64,000 bases of DNA from Octopus vulgaris. Lineage: Eukaryota. The DNA lies in contig OX597818.1 of NCBI GenBank assembly GCA_951406725.2, positions 37,882,001-37,946,000 of the forward strand. Direction: 5' to 3'. Both the position numbers and the translations under genes were made by a program. The notes beneath the pieces are model-generated. The model made no database searches. It worked only from the letters and a program-made list of their open reading frames with translations, and was not told the origin of the DNA. Positions 9,748 through 55,936 of the stretch are shown in pieces. The stretch's first letter is position 1. Each line of letters opens with the position of its first letter.

Positions 9748-10991
9748 TATATATTCTCTAATAAGGTTGGTTAAAGCAAGCAAAGTAAGTGCATTGTTTA
9801 ATTAATAACAAAGTGTCATGGCTGAGACATGATTTGAACTACAAACCATTTAGCAGCACTTCAGTAATTACCCCCCTATTATTATGTAGACAATGACATA
9901 TGCTAAGTGTCACTTGAAACATTACTAGATTATAATAGATTAAAAAAAAAAAACAATCTGAAACCTGAGTGTAAGCTTTACTTGAAAGACATGTAACCCA
10001 GACAAGACATGCCTGGACAGCTACTCATATTTTTAGGGAAGAATGCAGATATACAATGCATGCATAAACATGCATGTAGACAGATATTTACAGACATGCA
10101 CAGTCTAGAATATTTCAAATAAAAGTTGTTCATTTAATAGGCTGCTTATAAATCTACATTCTTTCTGTCTCTTTTATGCAGTTACAATGGTCTCTGCTAC
10201 ATTAAACTAGCTGCTTGTAAATCTCAACCACCACAACAAAGCCCAATCAATACACCTCCCTCTCCCTTCTTCCACATCACTACTACTGTCATTCTTTCCC
10301 CAAGAAGTTAAGGTTGTGTTTGTTTTTTTTTTGGTGGTGGTGGTGGTGGTGGTGGGGTTACCATGATTTTCTACACTCGAAATAGGGTTTCTAATTTCGG
10401 CACGAGATTGGTAATTTTTAGAGTAAATGGGGGTTTAATCATCATCATCGTTTAATGTCCGCTTTCCATGCTAGCATGGGTTGGACGATTTTGACTGAGG
10501 GCTGGCAAACCAGATGGCTGCACCAGGCTCCAATCTTGATCTGGCAGAGTTTCTACAGCTGGATGCCCTTCCTAATGCCAACCACTCCAAGAGTGTAGTG
10601 GGTGCTTTTTACATGCCACCGGCACGGGGGCCAGTCAGGCGGTACTGGCAATGACCTCGCTCGAATGACCTTCACTTTTTACACGTGCCAGTGAAGCAAC
10701 GTTGGTAACGATCACGCTCGAATGGTGCCCTTTTACGTGCCATGGGTATGGAAGCCAGTTGGCTGCTTTGGCAACGATCACACTCGGATGGTGCTCTTGG
10801 CACTCTACTAGCACAAGCGTCCTGGGGTCGATTTGCTTGACTAAAGGCGGTGCTCCAGCATGGCCACAGTCAAATGACTGAAACAAATAAAAGAATAAAA
10901 ACCAAGCAAAAATATGACAAACATCTTATTTAATTTACCTAGAATTCCAGAAACCAGAACTAATAATCTTGTCTAACGAGTCATCTAAGTT

Positions 10992-11362
10992 TACTCTTTT
11001 ACTTGTTTCAGTCATTTGACTGTGGCCATGCTGGAGCACCGCCTTTAGTCAAGCAACTCGACCACAGGACTTATTCTTTGGAAGCCTAGTACTTATTCTA
11101 TCGGTCTCTTTTGCCGAACCGCTAAGTTACGGGGACGTAAACACACCAGCATCAGTTGTCAAGACTCACAAACATATACATATATATATACATATATACG
11201 ACAGGCTTCTTTCAGTTTCCGTCTACCAAATCCACTCACAAGGCTTTGGTCAGCCCGAGGCTATAGTAGTAGACACTTGCCCAAGTTGCCACGCAGTGGG
11301 ACTGAACCCAGAACCATGTGGTTGGTAAGCAAGCTACTTACCACACAGCCACTCCTACACCT
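10992..11362 (-). mobile_element. SINE family A
   Basis: Reverse-complement match to the copy at 7393-7809. Confidence 0.9.
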
Positions 11363-14189: not shown

Positions 14190-14616
14190 ACCTATTTCTT
14201 TACTACCCTCAAGAGGCTAAACACAGAGAGGATAAACAAGGACAGACAAACGGATTAAGTCGATTATATTGACCCCAGTGCGTAACTGGTACTTATTAAA
14301 TCAACCCCGATAGAATGAAAGGCAAAGTTGACTTAGTCGGAATTTGAACTCAGAGTGTAAAGACAGACGAAATACCTATTTCGTTACTACCCACAAGGGG
14401 CTAAACACAGAGAGGACAAACAAGGACAGACAAATGGATTAAGTTGATTATATTGACCCCAGTGCATAACTGGTACTTATTTAATCAACCCCGATAGAAT
14501 GAAAGGCAAAGTCAACCTTGGTGGAATTTGAACTCAGAACTTAACGGCAGACGTAAGACGAAATACCGCTAAGCATTTTACCCGGTGTGCTAACGTTTCT
14601 GCCAGCTCACCACCTT
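14190..14616 (-). mobile_element. tRNA-derived SINE family B (Nin/Deu-like central domain), partial tandem dimer
   Basis: GCCTTTCATCCTTTCGGGGTCGAT..ATAAGTACCAG-type core. TSD CTACACT(G/A)AAATATTACC. Confidence 0.85.
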
Positions 14617-15516
14617 TACACTACACTAAAATATTACCATTTAATCATCAACTTTAGTCAGGAATATTGATTAAAACTTAATATAGTCTTCATTGAATAC
14701 TTACTAGATACATTTACTAAAATGTGTATTAAGAAAAATTAAAGCATAATCATTGACAAACATCTCTTACAAAGGTGTTATGTCATTCTAGATTTCTAAG
14801 ATCAACAATGTAGCTAATATTAATTAAGAATGATAAAGTAAATAGAGAAAGACTAAGTTACAAGGTAATTATTATTGTCAGAGATAATTAACAGCTATCA
14901 GTGGTATGACAACAACAAATCTGAGAAGGTTTATTAGCAGCAAGCAAATATCACCTGCTGTATGGTATAATGATCTTTCTCATTGCTACAATCTATAAGT
15001 TTGCAGTGAGACTGTGGAGTTGAACAAATCAACATAATACGCTCTAAGAAGATGGGTTTCAGTTGTTTGAGAATAAGGATTCAGTTGTTTCATCAACTGA
15101 ATAACTTGTTCCTGGATTAACAAGTGGCAGAACATTTCATAGACGTATGTATCCTAAATGTAATTCTCAGAGAGGATTAGTATGGTACAGTGTGTATGTA
15201 CAGGAATATACTTTTTAATTATAAGTATAATCCCCCTCCCCAACCAATGGGCTTCTATATAGTTCTGTCTACCCAATTTCACTCACAAGATATGGAGCAG
15301 TTCAAATCTATAGAAAATTACATTTGCCCAACATGCCATGGTGTGGGATCAAACCTAGGCTTTTGTGGTTGCAAAGCAAACTATTTAACTGTCTGCCTAT
15401 ACTATACCTACAAAAAAATTTGAATTAAATTTTCATACAGTTCTATATTTAAGAGATGAGGAATTATGTACATTATTTATATTTGACAGATATTTGTCCT
15501 CATCTTGTTTGTTGTA

Positions 15517-15562
15517 AACACAACATTTCGGCTGATATACTCTCCAGCTTTCATCAGGTGTC
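15517..15562 (-). ncRNA. Minimal type I hammerhead ribozyme, mirror arm of family D copy 1
   Basis: Reverse complement reads GACAC CTGATGA AAGCTG GAGAGTATAT CAGCC GAAA T GTT GTGTT. Confidence 0.6.
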
Positions 15563-16014
15563 ATATTTTAGTGTAGTGTAAAGGCGTCGAGCTGGCAGAA
15601 ACGTTAGCACGCCAGACAAAATGCTTAGCGGTATTTCGTCTTTCGTCTGCCGTTATGTTCTGAGTTCAAATTCCACCAAGGTCGACATTGCCTTTCATCC
15701 TTTCGGGGTCGATTAAATAAGTAAGGTATTTTTCAATGTTGTTATTATTATTATTACTTTTATTATTCAGGTCACGGCTTGGGATCGAACTTGGAATCTT
15801 GGGGTTAGTAGCCCGTGCTCTTAACCACTACGCCATATACCCATGGGCCCACGGGCATATGGCATAGTGATTAAGAGTGTGGGCTACTAACTCCAAGATT
15901 CAGAGTTCAATTCCAGGCAGTGACCTGAATAATAATAACAATAATAATAATAATAATAATAACACCATCGAAAAATACCTTAGGAATGAGAACCCAGGTT
16001 TGAAATTTCCCCAA

Positions 16015-16060
16015 GACACCTGATGAAGGCTGGAGAGTACATCAGCTGAAACGTTGTGTT
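16015..16060 (+). ncRNA. Minimal type I hammerhead ribozyme (Penelope-like)
   Basis: GACAC-CUGAUGA-A-GGCUG(loop)CAGCU-GAAA-C-GUU-GUGUU has both catalytic boxes, stem I, stem II and a vestigial stem III. Predicted cleavage after 16055. Confidence 0.75.
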
Positions 16061-16388
16061 AACAATAAAGAAGATGAGGACAAATATCCATCAAACGTAA
16101 ATAATGTTAAATTTTCATGTTATTCATTAGTCAGTTTTCCACATTCACATTTTACAGGTAAGTAGTTTCTCCGAGTAAAAACAATAATAACAATAATAAT
16201 GGTTTCAAGTTTCAGCACAGGGCCAGCAGCTTTTGAAAGAAGTGGGCAAGTCAATTACATTGACCCCAGTGTTACACTGGTACTTATTTTATCGACCCTG
16301 AAAGGATGAAAAGCAAAGTTGACCTCAGTGAAATTTGAACCCAAAATGTAAAGACAGGTGAAATGTCACTAAGCATTTTGTCTGATGT

Positions 16389-16550
16389 AGGCGTAGGAGT
16401 GGCTGTGTGGTAAGTAGCTTGCTTACAAACCACATGGTTCTGGGTTCAGTCCCACTGCATGGCACCTTGGGCAAGTGTCTTCTACTATAGCCTCAGGCTG
16501 ACCAAAGCCTTGTGAGTGGATTTGGTAAACGGAAACTGAAAGAAGCCCGT

Positions 16551-16611
<61 letters not shown>

Positions 16612-16817
16612 ATCTTTGTGTGTCTGTGTTTGTCCTCCCAACATCGCTTGACAACCGATGCTGGTGTGTTTACGTACCCGTAATTTAGCGGTTCGGCAAA
16701 AGAGACTGATAGAATAAGTACTAGACTTACAAAGAATAAGTCCTGGGGTCAATTTGCTCGACTAAAGACAGTGCTCCAGCATGGCCACAGTCACATGACT
16801 GAAACAAGTAAAAGAGT
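16389..16817 (+). mobile_element. SINE family A inserted in an older family-B-like SINE
   Basis: Full head-to-tail match to family A. Confidence 0.9.
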
Positions 16818-17330
16818 AATTCTGCCAGTTTGCTGCCTTAACAACAACAACAAGAATAATAGTGGTTTCAAATTTTGGCACAAGGCCAGTAACATTGGGA
16901 GAAGGGGTAAGTCAATTATGTTGACCCCAGTGTTCAACTGGTACTTATTTCATCAACCCCCAAAGCATGAAAGGCCAAGCAGACCATGGTATAATTTGAA
17001 TACAAAATGTAAAGATGGATGAAATGCCACAAAACATTCTTCCCAGCTTGCTGCGTTAACGACGACAATAATAAACTTTTACAATCTCAGGAAATCTACC
17101 TCCTGTGAATTTAAATGGTTCAAGGACACACTTATATAAAACTTTAAAAAGGAAGTGAAAAGAACACACACACACACACAAAAACTTATTAATCATTAGG
17201 TGCTTCAAGAAGAAGTTATAACATATAAGAAATGTATTTATCATATATTTGATTTCAGGCGAAAAAAACATTTTTGTGGAAAACATTCTAGAGACTGATT
17301 ACAGGATTAAGAGTTTGATGATAATGAATT

Positions 17331-17850
17331 CATCATCATCATCATCGTTTAACGTCCATTTTCCATGCTAGCATGGGTTGGACGATTTGACTGAGGACTA
17401 TTAAACCAGATAGCTGCACCAGACTCCAATCTGATCTGGCAGAGTTTCTACAGCTGGATGCCCTTCCTAACACCAACCACTCCGAGTGTAGTGGGTGCCT
17501 TTACGTGCCACCAGCACAAGGGCCAGTCAGGCGGTACTGGCAACGGCCACGCTCAAATGGTGCCTTTTATGTACCACCTGCACAGGAGCCAGTCCAGCGG
17601 CACTGGCAACGACCTCGCTCGAATGTTTTTTCATTTGCCACCTGCACAAGTGCCAGTAAGGCGACACAGGTAACGATCACGCTCGAATGGTGCCACCAGC
17701 ATGGAGGCCAGCTTGTTGCTCTGGCAACAATCACGCTTGTAAGGTACTCTTAGCGCTCCACTAGCACAGATGCCAATCGTCGAATTTGATTTCAATTTCA
17801 ATTCCGATTTCACTTGCCTCAACAGGTCTTCGCAAGCAGAGTTTAGTGTC
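17331..17850 (-). mobile_element. Family C, long copy
   Basis: Reverse match to 12737-13205, sharing the same 5' start GGACACTAAACTCTGCTTGC. Confidence 0.85.
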
Positions 17851-18214
17851 CCACAAAAAAATATACTTACCAATTAATGAAATAATTGGTGAGTATACCT
17901 ATGTTAATAATTCATTTTGAAAAACACTCAAACTTAATTTCTTTTATTATCATCATCATCATCATTTTACATCTGCTTTTCCATGCTTGCATGGGTCAGG
18001 CAGAATGTGCTAAGGCAGATCTTTTACTGCTTCATGCCCTTGCTGTCACCAAAATTTATTTGTTTCCAAGCAAGGTAGTATTTCCCATGGCCAGACACAT
18101 TTTTCATGGAAGACTAGAAACAATCAATCTCACTTGTATGACAATGGTGCTCCTCTACAACCATCATGCAATGTCTAGATATGGGTAAACGGAAAACATG
18201 CACAGACACATACT

Positions 18215-18510
18215 TGTATGTATGTGTGTATGTGTGTGTGTATGTGTGTGTATGTATGTATGTATGTATGTATGTATGTATGTATGTATGTATGTATGTA
18301 TGTATGTATGTATGTATGTATGTATGTATGTATGAATGTATGTATGCATGCATGAATGTATGTATGCATGCATGAATGTATGTATGCATGCATGAATGTA
18401 TGTATGTATGCATGAATGTATGTATGCGTGCATGCATGTATGTATATGTGTGTGTGTATGTATGTATGTATATGTGTGTGTGTATGTAAGTATGTATATA
18501 CATATACATA
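18215..18510. repeat. (ATGT)n / (ATGC) compound microsatellite
   Basis: Seen directly in the sequence. Confidence 0.98.
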
Positions 18511-19183
18511 CAGAAACTCACACATGCTCACTCAAAGATTTATAAATATGTGTATGTGTGTGCGTGTCTGTATATATGTATGTATATATGTCTATGCATG
18601 CATGCATGCATACATTCATCATCATCATCATCATCATTTAACATCCGCTTTCCATGCTAGCATGGGTTGGACGATATGACTGAGGGCTGGCGAACCAGAT
18701 GGCTGCACCAGGCTCCAATCTTGATCTGGCAGAGTTTCTACAGCTGGATGCCCTTCCTAACGCCAACCACTCCAAGAGTGTAGTGGGTGCTTTTAAGTGC
18801 CACCTGCATCAGGGCCAGTCAGGCAGTACTGGCAATGGCCACGCTCAAGTGGAGTCTTTTAGGTGCCACCTGCAGAGGGGCCAATCCAGCAGCACTGGCA
18901 ACGACCTCACTCAAATGTTTTTCACATGCCACCGGTACAATGGGTTTCTTTCAATTTCACTCTATAAAATCCATTCCTAAATCTTTGGTTGGTCCAGGGT
19001 CATAGAAGGAAAAACTTGTTCAGCATGCTGAGCAGTAGGATTGAACATAGGACCACATATTTGGGAAGCAAACTTCTTAACCATACAGTCTTGTCTGCAC
19101 CCAATAAAGTAATTTTGAATTTTAAACCCATTCACATTTAAACCAGCTATATTCAGCCAATATATTCTATTCAATATATTCTA

Positions 19184-19405
19184 GGCAGCGAGATGGCAGA
19201 AACGTTAGCACGCTGGGCGAAATGCGTAGCTGTATTTCGTCTGCCGTTACGTTCTGAGTTCAAATTCCGCCGAGGTCGACTTTGCCTTTCATCCTTTCGG
19301 GATCGATAAATTAAGTACCAGTTACGCACTAGGGTCGGCGTAATCCGTTTGTCTGTCCTTATTTGTCCCCTCTGTGTGTAGCCCCTTGTGGGTAGTAAAG
19401 AAATA
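19184..19405 (+). mobile_element. SINE family B inserted in a TTAA MITE
   Basis: GGCAGCGAGATGGCAGAA head and B box GAGTTCAAATTCC. TSD AATATATTCTA. Confidence 0.85.
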
Positions 19406-19767
19406 AATATATTCTATTTGTTTTATGTTTAAAATGGCCAGGTCTGACCTCTCACACCAACCCTATTATATCGTTCTAAAAATTAACAGGTATCTCATCA
19501 AAATCTCAAAGCTACAAAATAATGCATGATTAATTCAAAGCAATGTGAATAAATAAGTATTACATTTGACAGAGAAATCTGAAATCTAGAGGATTAAACT
19601 GTAATAAATGGTCAAGAATAGATCAAAATTTGACATGCTGAGGTTTAACTGGTTCATCATCATTAGCTCACAGACATGTCTTCATCTGTTCCTCTGAGCT
19701 TGTAAACTGTACACCACCTCATGCACCAGGCTTTCCTCTTCCCATCACTTCTATTGAATCACCCATA

Positions 19768-20000
19768 CCTATTTCTTTACTACCCACAAGAGGCTAAACA
19801 CAGAGAGGACAAACAAGGACAGACAAATGGATTAAGACAATTACATCGACCCCAGTGCGTAACTGGTACTTAATTTATCGGCCCCAAAAGGATGAAAGGC
19901 AAAGCCGACCTCGGTGGAATTTGAACTCAGAACGTAACGGCAGACGAAATACCAATAAGCATTTCACCCGGCGTGCTAACGATTCTGCCAGCTCAACGCC
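19768..20000 (-). mobile_element. SINE family B
   Basis: Reverse match to the copy at 19184. Confidence 0.85.
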
Positions 20001-20514
20001 TTAATTCGGAGTTAATACCACAGTCATTTTGAAACCATAGGATTAAAGCTGAAGAAGGACAGATCTGAAATGTTAGGTTTTTTACTCTTTACAGAGCATC
20101 AATTCATCATTAATTTATATTTTTCTATAGGCATGGTTATGTGGTTAAAAAGTTTGCTTTACAACCATGTGGTTTCAGGTTCAGCCCCACTTCACAGCAC
20201 CTTGGACAAGCATCTACTTTAGCTCCTGGCCAACCAATGTCTGATGAGTGAATATGATAAATGGAAACTGTGTGGAATCTTGTTGTGTATGTGTGAGTGA
20301 GTGTTTGTCCGCCACCACTTGACAACTAGTTTTGATTTATGTCTCTGTAACAGAGCAATTTAGCAAAAGGAATTGATAAAATAAGTACCAAACTTTAAAA
20401 AAACATAAGTATTGAAGCCAATTTACCCAACTAAAAACCCTTCAAGGCCATGCCCCAGCATGGCCACGGTCCAGTCACTGAAACAAGCAAAAGAATAAAA
20501 TGCCTAGTCAAAGG

Positions 20515-20715
20515 TAACTTGAAATACTTCTTTGTTAGGTGTCTGCTGCAGCAGAGCTAACTTGGAATATATCCAAGTTAGATATCAGCTCAAACATCTG
20601 ACTGGGAACACTTCCGTACCAAATGTCTACTAGAGCAGAGCAGACTTGGAATACTTTCAAGTTAGATGTTGATTTATGCAGAGCTGGCTTGAAATACTTC
20701 TATGCAATGTCTTTT
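20515..20715. repeat. Degenerate ~43-bp tandem repeat, about 5 units
   Basis: An ACTTG(G/A)AATACTTC-like motif recurs at ~20517, 20559, 20601, 20644 and 20687. Confidence 0.65.
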
Positions 20716-20754
20716 AGACCTGTGATATTGAGACTTTTACAGTGTTATTTGTCT

Positions 20755-20983
20755 TAACTCTTTCGTTAGCAACCCGGCTGAAACCGGGCTCTGGCTCTGT
20801 AGTACAAATGTCTTACTTTCAAAAGTTTTGAATTAAAATTTTCCACCAAACCTTAGTCACAATTTTGGTTCCTAACACTAACTGAATGATAACTAAGTTA
20901 TTTTACTAAATTCTTTGTTATATTTAAAGTAAATGAAAGAAACGCAGAGCATCTCCAAATAAATACAGTAACGAAAGGGTTAA
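20755..20983. mobile_element. TTAA-flanked MITE (piggyBac-like), family 1
   Basis: TTAAC(C/T)CTTTCGTTA...TAACGAAAGGGTTAA termini. Copies at ~40980-41118 and ~47457-47749. Confidence 0.75.
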
Positions 20984-21185
20984 TGAACAGTGCTACAATG
21001 ATGTCTGTTATACTAAATGTTTGATCAAGCGAAACAATGATAACAAGCAGAAACAATAACAGTTTTAAATTTTAGAAAATAAACTAAAATGTGAATGAAA
21101 TAGTCAGCTTTAAAAAATACAAGGTACTGTATTTAATCAAATCACCATGACTAGATACCAAGAACTGAAATGGTACTTAGAATAC

Positions 21186-21696
21186 AGTTCTATATTTAAG
21201 AGAGGAGGAATTCTGTACATTATTTACATTTGACGGCTATTTGTCTTCATCTTGTTTGTTGTTAACACAATGTTTCAGTTGATATACCCTCCAGCCTTCT
21301 TCAGGTGTCTTGGAGAAATTTCAAACTTGGGTTCTCATTCCTAAGGTATTTTTCGATGTTATTATTATTAATATTGTTATTATTATTTTTATTATTATTA
21401 TTAGTGTTCAGGTCACTGCTTGGAATCAAACTTAACCACTACACCATATGCCCGTGGGCATATGACGTAGTGGTTAAGAGTGCGGGCTACTAACCCCAAG
21501 ATTCCAAGTTCGATTCCAAGCAGTGACCTGAACACTAATAATAATAATAATAATAACAATATTAATAATAATAACATCGAAAAATACCTTAGGAACGAGA
21601 ACCCAGGTTTGAATTTCCCCAAGACACCTGAAGAAGGCTGGAGGGTATATCAACTGAAACGTGTTTACAACAAACAAGATGAGGACAAATATCTAA
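21186..21696. mobile_element. Palindromic tRNA-head/hammerhead-tail retroelement (family D), copy 2
   Basis: Same architecture, with centre CATATGCCCGTGGGCATATG. 14-bp TSD GGTACTTAGAATAC at 21172-21185 and 21697-21710. Confidence 0.85.
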
Positions 21697-22196
21697 GGTA
21701 CTTAGAATACTAATGTACAATCTGGTTTTTATTCTAATATATTAAAGCCATTATTCATGGTGGGAGCCTATTACATGATCGCTATACCTACCAGAAATAG
21801 CAGCCAAATCTCCCTATCATAGCCAGCTGTCCTGACAAGAGAGGGATATATTTGATAATGTAGTCCTAGATACACAATCACTTCAAGAAGAAAGGATAGG
21901 CATGGATGGAATGCTTGTAGTCATAAGACTATTCGGCCAGAGCAGAGTTGGTGCTAAGCAAAAACAACAACAATAATCATTACTCATGAATAGAACTTCG
22001 GTCAAAGAATAGCATATGAAATAATAAAATTAAAAAAATACCAAACTGCATCTGCTTTGTCCCACTTCAAAGTAAACTGACAGCAGTTCCCTCTAACAAG
22101 TCCTGAATATAAAAGAAAGGGGAGCAAAGAAAGAGGACAGCAGAAGCAAGTCTAAACACGGTTCTCATGCACTGAGTTAGGTGATGTTAACTACAG

Positions 22197-23697: not shown

Positions 23698-23929
23698 GAG
23701 GTGGCAAGCTGGCAGAATCGTTAGCACGCTGGATGAAATGCTTATCAGTATTTCGTTTGCCGTTACGTTCTGAGTTCAAATTCCGCCAAAGTCGACTTAG
23801 TCTTTCATCCTTCCGGGTTCGATTAAATAAGTACCAGTTACGCACTGGGGTCGATATAATCGTTTTAATCCGTTTGTCTGTCCTTGTTTGTCCCCTCTGT
23901 ATTTAGCCCCTTGTGGGTAGTTAAAAATA
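23698..23929 (+). mobile_element. SINE family B
   Basis: Forward match. TSD AATAACTGGTGCC. Confidence 0.85.
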
Positions 23930-55780: not shown

Positions 55781-55936
55781 ACAGTTTTATATTTAAGAGA
55801 TGAGGAATTATGTACATTATTTACATTTGCCGGATATTTGTCCTCGTCTGATGTTGGCTGGAGGGTATATCAGCCGAAACATTGTGTTAACAACAAACAA
55901 AATGAGGGCAAATATCCGTCAAATGTAAATAATGTA
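55781..55936. mobile_element. Family D, internally collapsed copy (only the arm ends remain)
   Basis: Same left terminus ACAGTT(T)TATATTTAAGAGATGAGG, joined directly to the hammerhead-bearing right arm. Confidence 0.75.

Follow-up and report, generated by a model that had tools for sequence, protein, structure and literature searches.

The window, a 64-kb stretch of DNA, contains three palindromic copies of one repeat (15437-16106, 21186-21696 and 55781-55936), located with a BLAST self-comparison of the window and by direct reading of the letters. Both approaches bore out what a sequence-only reading of this DNA had reported, namely three copies, a head-to-head layout and a GACAC-CTGAnGA...GAAA motif. 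Copy 1 lies between identical 12-bp target site duplications (TSDs; 15425-15436 and 16107-16118). Its left side carries, on the minus strand, the 'tail' of a Penelope-like element (PLE) as the long end (15437-15470), which runs on into the ORF in full-length elements, and an inverted arm made up of a post-hammerhead segment and a degenerate minimal hammerhead (15471-15562; hammerhead at 15515-15562) that fails our strict descriptor. A piece of another abundant repeat, matching seven other sites in the window, takes the place of the body (about 15580-15723, plus strand), and is followed by an inverted (AAT)n and tRNA-like head (15724-15848, minus strand, equivalent to reference 86-197). The sense arm, on the plus strand, comprises a head resembling tRNA-Arg, with motifs similar to A and B boxes, that forms the 5' part of the pLTR (15852-15927), an (AAT)n spacer (15928-15962), a 'body' with a probable ORF start codon at 15986 (15963-16014), a minimal type I hammerhead motif within the ORF frame, with a mutated stem II closing pair and a predicted cut after 16055 (16015-16060), and a post-hammerhead segment up to the short fixed end (16061-16106).

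Copy 2 is flanked by 14-bp TSDs (21172-21185 and 21697-21710), the left one consisting of 12 bp plus 2 bases common with the element end; its last two bases are the element's first two, and the element starts at 21184. The inverted arm (21184-21445, minus strand) holds the tail, a degenerate hammerhead (21262-21309), the body, (AAT)n and an internally deleted head, the palindrome centre (21444-21464) is a natural GCCC-NN-GGGC hairpin, and the sense arm (21456-21696, plus strand) runs from the head through (AAT)n and body to a degenerate hammerhead (21623-21668), stopping about 20 bases short of the usual short end. As had been claimed, the TSDs of copies 1 and 2 flank the whole palindrome and not single arms. 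The hammerhead motif is present in 4/4 arms of these two copies (16015+, 21623+, 21309- and 15562-), but the order head-(AAT)n-body-hammerhead, ascribed earlier to all arms, is broken by the replaced body in the left arm of copy 1. Copy 3 (55781-55936) is a short stump in which inverted tail and post-hammerhead segment are fused to a sense arm that starts inside the hammerhead, and its right end adjoins another repeat. No head, complete hammerhead or TSD was seen in it, which corrects the earlier description.

The same structure recurs across the genome, where a 22-nt tail word and a 20-nt head word have 5,740 and 5,148 exact matches, respectively, against none for either reversed control. Head-to-head layout prevails, with an inverted arm in 60 of 90 tail-anchored loci, and the outer ends favour two positions, separated by about 30 bases. 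The end that had been described as variably truncated is mostly a second fixed one, since the short end of the inverted arm falls within a single 10-base interval (reference 320-329) in 40/60 copies. TSDs were found in 40/60 inverted copies versus 29/200 flank-swapped controls, and vary from 7 to 15 bp in length, with one of 23. The family is decayed (~6%). Palindromes consisting of the pLTR only number in the thousands and short copies far outnumber coding ones, head-anchored loci showing an endonuclease (EN) junction in 3/30 cases and an inverted arm in 21/30; such short copies may descend from master loci that were themselves short, and not from full-length elements.

The genome harbours an autonomous element of Penelope/Poseidon type with the order head-(AAT)n-[ATG body-hammerhead-post-tail-N-terminus-RT-EN stop]-head, and the arm, from head and (AAT)n to body, hammerhead and tail, is its pLTR. 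The head comes after the 3' end of the endonuclease in 38/40 cases, pLTRs flank the ORF on both sides at three loci (L152, L153 and L145), and many of 19 loci have the 5' part of the ORF directly after the pLTR. A single reading frame runs from the body ATG through the hammerhead into the tail and matches the N-terminus of an 847-aa homologue (P0009; 49% identity over 87 aa, E 1e-22); body, hammerhead and tail are coding sequence, the start of the element's ORF. Coding copies of up to several kb have the identical inverted layout, for example L062, a 2.2-kb palindrome, and L346-L349. The majority ORF contains one stop in 764 codons and holds the RT in a single ORF (Pfam RVT_1, E 1.4e-10), and a partner with the same tail and with RT and EN in its ORF upholds the Penelope link proposed earlier. 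The RT-EN stretch is 37% identical over 569 aa to a PLE-type protein of Anolis carolinensis (P0087), compared with 24-29% to other PLE-type families of the same genome; the closest protein homologues (P0001-P0016) reach 54-68%. Pfam called no GIY-YIG domain on the element's protein, and the domain was assigned by alignment of the C-terminal region (E 2e-15) to the VYxIPCxC..Y.G.T..R..EH..H region of P0087, which we take to be the GIY-YIG endonuclease motif. Domain order, a collinear RT-EN linker and the higher identity to P0087 than to the genome's other PLE-type families point to the Penelope/Poseidon clade. The link to the enzyme depends on copies that have decayed, because the 59 genome matches include no intact full ORF (longest stop-free stretch, 569 aa) and no young or intact partner; young intact PLE-type families are present in the genome, but they lack the pLTR of the palindrome element.

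We consider it highly probable that the palindromes are head-to-head, 5'-truncated pLTR copies of this decayed element, each probably formed afresh during insertion by the element's RT/GIY-YIG. Judging from published PLE biochemistry, the target would receive a staggered double nick, 10-13 bases apart, and two internal RT start sites would bound the tail; the enzyme likely primes reverse transcription from both nicked strands. Copying would mostly halt at the 5' edge of the tRNA-derived segment, the probable transcription start, and the inner ends may be joined through a GCCC-AC-GGGC hairpin or chance microhomology. The two arms of a palindrome were discordant in 7/67 copies at one subfamily site and in 9/40 at a second, against 40% and 47% expected, and no marker distinguishing long from short arms was found (best p 0.004 of 206 tests). 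Because the two arms at an insertion carry matching subfamily alleles in the absence of such a marker, formation anew at each insertion is likely; fold-back copying of one cDNA accounts for arm concordance equally well. Perfect hairpin centres occur at 510 exact genome sites, versus 491 EN-head junctions. The centre dinucleotide was AC in six palindromes, GT in two and ambiguous in six, a split that does not separate fold-back from two primers. Only 13/60 copies are near symmetric, so independent truncation of two cDNAs is not separable from later deletions within the palindrome.

The one unusual feature of the element is the tRNA-derived segment inside the pLTR, which probably marks the transcription start. 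Among 27 distinct genome tRNAs of six amino-acid types, the head best matches tRNA-Arg (about 72% over 53 nt, z 10-12 versus shuffles), in agreement with the tRNA-like A/B-box head recognized earlier. ARAGORN called no tRNA on the window or on locus L129, and the head's cloverleaf is lost. The majority sequence retains the A/B-box spacing, and arms preferentially begin immediately before position +1 of the tRNA: 42/150 arm starts fall at reference 61-100 and only 13 extend further upstream. No TTTT run is present on the sense strand of the pLTR or the ORF (P about 0.05 for the ORF), versus 3-10 runs in 11/11 ORFs of other PLE-type families in the same genome. An A/B-box module where arms begin, combined with an ORF free of TTTT, suggests Pol III transcription, and use by Pol III of the tRNA-Arg-like head at the 5' edge of the pLTR is plausible.

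These observations also bear on a reading of the same element that contests the Pol III step only and that we judge to have an even chance of being correct. It holds that the head boundary reflects RT stalling or fold-back at an RNA/cDNA hairpin immediately upstream, that the tRNA segment is what is left of a SINE and no longer functions, and that Pol II transcribes the element, either from an internal promoter or by read-through from the host. Pol III transcripts lack a cap and are ill-suited as mRNA, a 35-nt hairpin (-11.6 kcal/mol) lies at the boundary just upstream of the head, and the cloverleaf is gone, all of which agree with it; the box spacing, the position of the boundary relative to the tRNA +1 and the missing TTTT runs argue against it. 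A LINE-like internal promoter reported in D. virilis Penelope (PMC2377424), and palindromes described at the pLTR 5' end of A. vaga PLEs that have no tRNA heads (PMC3846280), likewise favour it. PLE promoters are of Pol II type in the accounts accessible to us (PMC2377424, PMC3846280). The fuller Pol III scenario we hold to be less likely than not: in it, an autonomous PLE took an internal Pol III promoter, derived from tRNA-Arg, into the front of its pLTR and lost TTTT terminators from its 2.5-kb ORF, giving a Pol III-transcribed coding retroelement, every solo pLTR of which would act as a SINE-like template seeding thousands of palindromes.

No tRNA-headed PLE was found in the openly accessible literature, and Repbase or Dfam may file the family as Penelope. 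Among 78 metagenome PLE loci, most on contigs too short to count, two had tRNA-like boxes near the ORF, neither in a pLTR. Another host carries an unrelated tRNA-headed palindrome with a TSD and a one-sided tail (L325), which hints at recurrence of such a possible PLE-to-SINE route.

The sequence-only reading had proposed a separate non-coding palindromic SINE/retrozyme with its own architecture, inherited as a unit, sharing only its 3' tail with Penelope and released by its hammerhead. The dominance of short copies, the tRNA-related head and the precedent of Sm-alpha, as described, for Pol III combined with a hammerhead are in its favour, but we hold it to be improbable and already largely refuted. 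The arm belongs in its entirety to the partner's pLTR, and so does the head (38/40), whereas a tRNA-SINE would share the tail only. Arm-specific alleles are absent, and coding-linked arms match palindrome arms in subfamily haplotypes and age (5.2% vs 4.5% non-CpG). The cut site, moreover, is situated 50-90 bases upstream of the outer ends and defines neither end of the element. The strict minimal-hammerhead descriptor (core CUGAnGA / GAAA / UH plus stems I and II) was passed by the family majority sequence (stem I 4/4, stem II 6 bp) and by 32/117 sampled arms but by 0/4 window arms; the earlier recognition of a minimal type I hammerhead motif was right. Rfam, suggested earlier as a check, called no hammerhead on the window or L129, and MFE folds of the four window hammerheads gave uninformative z from -1.25 to +1.24. 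A comparison of copies showed no greater conservation in the core than in the flanking positions, which is uninformative where copies decay neutrally, and the core's only common variant is at the free position 7. The same architecture with different stems is found in 18/78 PLE loci from other hosts. We regard the hammerhead as an ordinary PLE pLTR motif that is carried along.

In three raw fragmented RNA-seq runs (one study, possibly of another species) compared with L109, with the head uncovered, depth was equal on both strands, at ~2,000x over the pLTR and <15x over the ORF, and reads exited the element at both tail boundaries. The depth pattern is what read-through of many copies, or a library without strand information, would give, and is silent on Pol III. 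Mapping of read ends at the cut site had been suggested as a check; these runs, a weak test, showed no pile-up of read beginnings or ends there. A tandem-retrozyme reading was rejected, the layout being head-to-head in 60/90 loci rather than head-to-tail and the ends lying away from the cut site. Long inverted arms and TSDs would also be expected of a DNA transposon of fold-back or MITE type bounded by long terminal inverted repeats, but given the unequal termini, the variable TSD length and a 5'-truncation series continuous with the RT-EN ORF this reading has next to no chance of being correct and was rejected.

Most of the finding is ordinary, because a palindrome, a tail, a TSD and a hammerhead are all traces that textbooks would lead one to expect of a PLE. 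If true, a tRNA-derived promoter within a coding PLE would tie SINE origin to PLEs by a direct PLE-to-SINE route, and how an RNA lacking a cap and carrying a ribozyme within its ORF gets translated would become a testable question. Independently, the copies, which number in the thousands and have both ends fixed and the inner boundary sharp, constitute a large natural data set on PLE inverted structures, with respect to two primers versus fold-back.

As far as published descriptions go, inverted arms, a one-sided tail of ~30 nt and TSDs of ~8-13 bp are features of EN+ PLEs of the Penelope/Poseidon clade such as A. vaga Pen2a (PMC3846280) and Anolis PAc (PMC11167929; see also PMC8557442), which also have a single ORF with RT and C-terminal EN. 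In Pen2a and PAc the pLTR likewise holds the first codons, with the hammerhead overlapping the ORF start, a 5'-truncated copy is inverted head-to-head, and a palindrome lies at the pLTR 5' end; hammerhead cleavage in PAc is assisted by protein. Unlike these elements as described, the octopus pLTR opens with a tRNA-Arg-like A/B-box module and (AAT)n, forms pLTR-only palindromes in thousands and has a sense strand without TTTT. The minimal type I hammerheads of metazoan PLEs (Cervera and de la Pena, 2014; PMC4209133), for which opposite-strand pairs 100-700 bp apart were noted, have in common with the octopus motif a 4-5-bp stem I, a long stem II, an extra base before G10.1, the G10.1-C11.1 pair and a palindromic CG replacing stem III; the octopus motif differs in its GUU site and mutated window copies. 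Schistosoma Sm-alpha and Sj-alpha (PMC2770079, PMC6765202) are likewise high-copy repeats in which a hammerhead comes after a tRNA-related promoter of Pol III type, but are reported as non-coding and tandem, with a canonical active hammerhead freeing monomers, whereas the octopus unit is part of a coding PLE, is arranged head-to-head and does not end at its cut site. Animal non-LTR retrozymes (bioRxiv 10.64898/2026.07.22.740005) and Chlamys non-autonomous elements (PMC8557442) are similarly non-coding, hammerhead- or pLTR-derived PLE passengers; they differ from the octopus palindromes in consisting of tandem head-to-tail units, with no tRNA head mentioned in the accessible descriptions.

Direct reading and self-comparison of the window uphold the positions claimed by the sequence-only reading for three head-to-head copies (15437-16106, 21186-21696 and 55781-55936), and the hammerhead-like motif that it described is found in 4/4 window arms. 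The TSD is 12 bp in copy 1 and 14 bp in copy 2, where its final two bases double as the element end; copy 3 is a headless stump at which no TSD was visible on direct reading. A foreign fragment (~15580-15723), which replaces the body in the left arm of copy 1, is a member of another abundant short repeat family with relatives at 14290-14637, 16281-16384, 16942-17000, 19183-19317, 19867-20002 and 23699-23833. Other abundant repeats, too, form head-to-head hairpins at 1033-1281 and 10811-11080, where Rfam miRNA-family matches are spurious. Word searches of the genome (2.8 Gb, 227 contigs) returned at least 5,740 exact matches to a 22-nt tail word and at least 5,148 to a 20-nt head word, both counts being floors, and 0 for controls.

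Of the 30 tail-anchored loci taken first, two (L050 and L052) have coding sequence immediately 5′ of the head, and outward walking gave an element ordered as head, (AAT)n, body, hammerhead, post-hammerhead segment, tail, 5′ part of the ORF, RT, C-terminal GIY-YIG endonuclease (EN) and again head; the arrangement pLTR-ORF-pLTR, the pLTR being the terminal repeat of a Penelope-like element (PLE), is present in loci L152, L153 and L145. Among the coding loci fetched, the head lies at most 120 bases from the EN 3′ end in 38/40 distinct ends, and in the remaining two it is deleted down to the microsatellite. A single reading frame runs from an ATG in the body through the hammerhead and tail, and because the N-terminus of a homologue of 847 aa (P0009) shares 49% identity with this frame over 87 aa, the body that had been read as non-coding is counted as ORF. 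The RT matches Pfam RVT_1, and a stop-free RT-EN stretch of 569 aa shares 37% identity with a PLE-type protein of Anolis; intact coding copies numbered 0 among 59 matches. The family also includes palindromic stumps within or beside coding copies (L084, L089), three coding copies, nearly identical and no more than 1.1 Mb apart on contig 1, that resemble segmental duplicates (L061-L063), and a tandem array of six EN-head junctions at 150-bp spacing (G000:C2:16238320-16239089). This genome also has dozens of copies of several young PLE-type families whose frames of 760-820 aa are intact (L380, L383, L385-L393); they are 24-29% identical to the head-bearing family and do not share its pLTR.

The insertion pattern of the palindromes is the published PLE footprint. 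In a structure-blind sample requiring the exact tail word (the first 90 of 100 listed tail matches, contig 1), an inverted arm is present at 60/90 loci. The short end falls at 320-329 of the family arm (reference) coordinates in 40 of these 60, ~30 bases short of a long end that is mostly at 354-360, and a TSD with a mode of 11-13 bp accompanies 40/60 inverted copies, compared with 5/30 loci lacking the inverted arm and 29/200 flank-swapped controls. Coding copies also show the inverted layout (L062, L346-L349). The short end coincides with a 9-bp repeat (reference 309-327, window about 16095-16106) that varies in copy number without disturbing the ORF frame (Asn-Val-Asn). In published accounts, A. 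vaga PLEs have an inverted pLTR, a 9-10-bp TSD, a 31-bp tail, first codons within the pLTR and head-to-head palindromic junctions (PMC3846280); the PLE tail is 30-40 bp and on one side only (PMC8557442), and is bounded by two internal RT start sites, both target strands being cut and extended (PMC11167929); and minimal hammerheads form pairs on opposite strands, 100-700 bp apart (PMC4209133). In another host, metagenome contig Ga0126336_10068130 (L325:1614-1941) holds a head-to-head palindrome with a different tRNA-like head, arms 95-98% complementary, a TSD of 12-17 bp and, at one end alone, an extension of ~30 nt; a hammerhead was not found in it, and it sits 300 bases beyond a PLE ORF end. 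Here an unrelated tRNA-headed element bears a footprint of PLE type.

Arms were compared in 105 head-to-head copies, of which 75 offered 60 or more shared sites; the set contains 30 loci chosen as best BLAST matches, a group biased towards palindromes. Arms diverge by 6.4% from the majority and by 10.2% within a copy (11.1% for shuffled pairs), and most change therefore postdates insertion. Derived alleles are shared more within a copy (0.185) than between copies (0.096), arms are discordant at two subfamily sites in 7/67 (expected 40%) and 9/40 (47%) cases, and no site marks long against short arms (best p 0.004 of 206); we therefore conclude that both arms of each event derive from one source lineage, a diverged palindromic master being absent. 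At four further common sites the arms agree little or not at all, and these positions resemble mutation hot spots. Near-symmetric forms make up 13/60 inverted copies, and junctions overlap in 29/60. Fold-back and two-primer models of palindrome formation are both compatible with the data; the two-primer model gains some weight from the pair of fixed ends and from the asymmetry, but asymmetry could also stem from later deletions.

Of the 27 distinct tRNAs of the genome, tRNA-Arg gives the best alignment to the head (z 10-12), which no longer adopts a tRNA fold. Arm starts cluster at the 5′ edge of the head (42/150 at reference 61-100, only 13 beyond), and a hairpin of -11.6 kcal/mol occupies the head boundary; the arm-start boundary reflects either the RNA start or RT stalling at this hairpin. 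Head-anchored loci (n=30) lead to an inverted arm in 21 cases, an EN junction in 3 and neither in 6, and the genome holds 510 perfect hairpin centres versus 491 natural EN-head junctions. In a post hoc test, TTTT occurs 0 times on the sense strand of the majority ORF (2,295 nt, built from 22 copies) plus pLTR, with P(0) of 0.051, 0.016 or 0.004 under three nulls, of which about 0.05 is the fair figure because control ORFs likewise drop below the strictest null. At least 3 TTTT runs are present in 16/17 PLE ORFs from other hosts, and 3-10 in 11/11 ORFs of other PLE-type families of this genome; GGGG, too, is missing from the majority ORF, as from 6/11 control ORFs. As a pointer on the Pol III question, the absence of TTTT is suggestive only.

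A strict minimal hammerhead descriptor, with 0 matches in 30 window shuffles, is passed by the majority sequence, by 32/117 sampled arms and by 0/4 window arms, and the same architecture with different stems occurs in 18/78 PLE loci of other hosts. Among family copies, the core decays equally with neighbouring positions. In three runs of fragmented RNA-seq from one study, possibly of another species, no RNA ends lie at the predicted cut site, which reads cross, and reads exit the element at both tail boundaries. As an ancestral PLE feature the hammerhead motif is genuine, its ribozyme activity in this family being putative; in PMC11167929 the hammerhead is reported to be assisted by protein and not to be needed for insertion in vitro.

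The proposed tRNA-derived SINE does not fit, as more than the tail is common to the partner element, and neither does a retrozyme, as the family does not show tandem units cut at the ribozyme. On the features tested, the palindrome family acts like EN+ PLEs and belongs to them, its probable clade (Penelope/Poseidon) being assigned from domain order, the collinear RT-EN linker and sequence similarity. Within the literature searched (including PMC2377424, PMC4758252 and PMC6962438), no tRNA-headed PLE was found, Dfam/Repbase entries lying outside that search. PLE-derived passenger elements are on record (bioRxiv 10.64898/2026.07.22.740005), and Sm-alpha offers a precedent for combining a Pol III head with a hammerhead (PMC2770079, PMC6765202).
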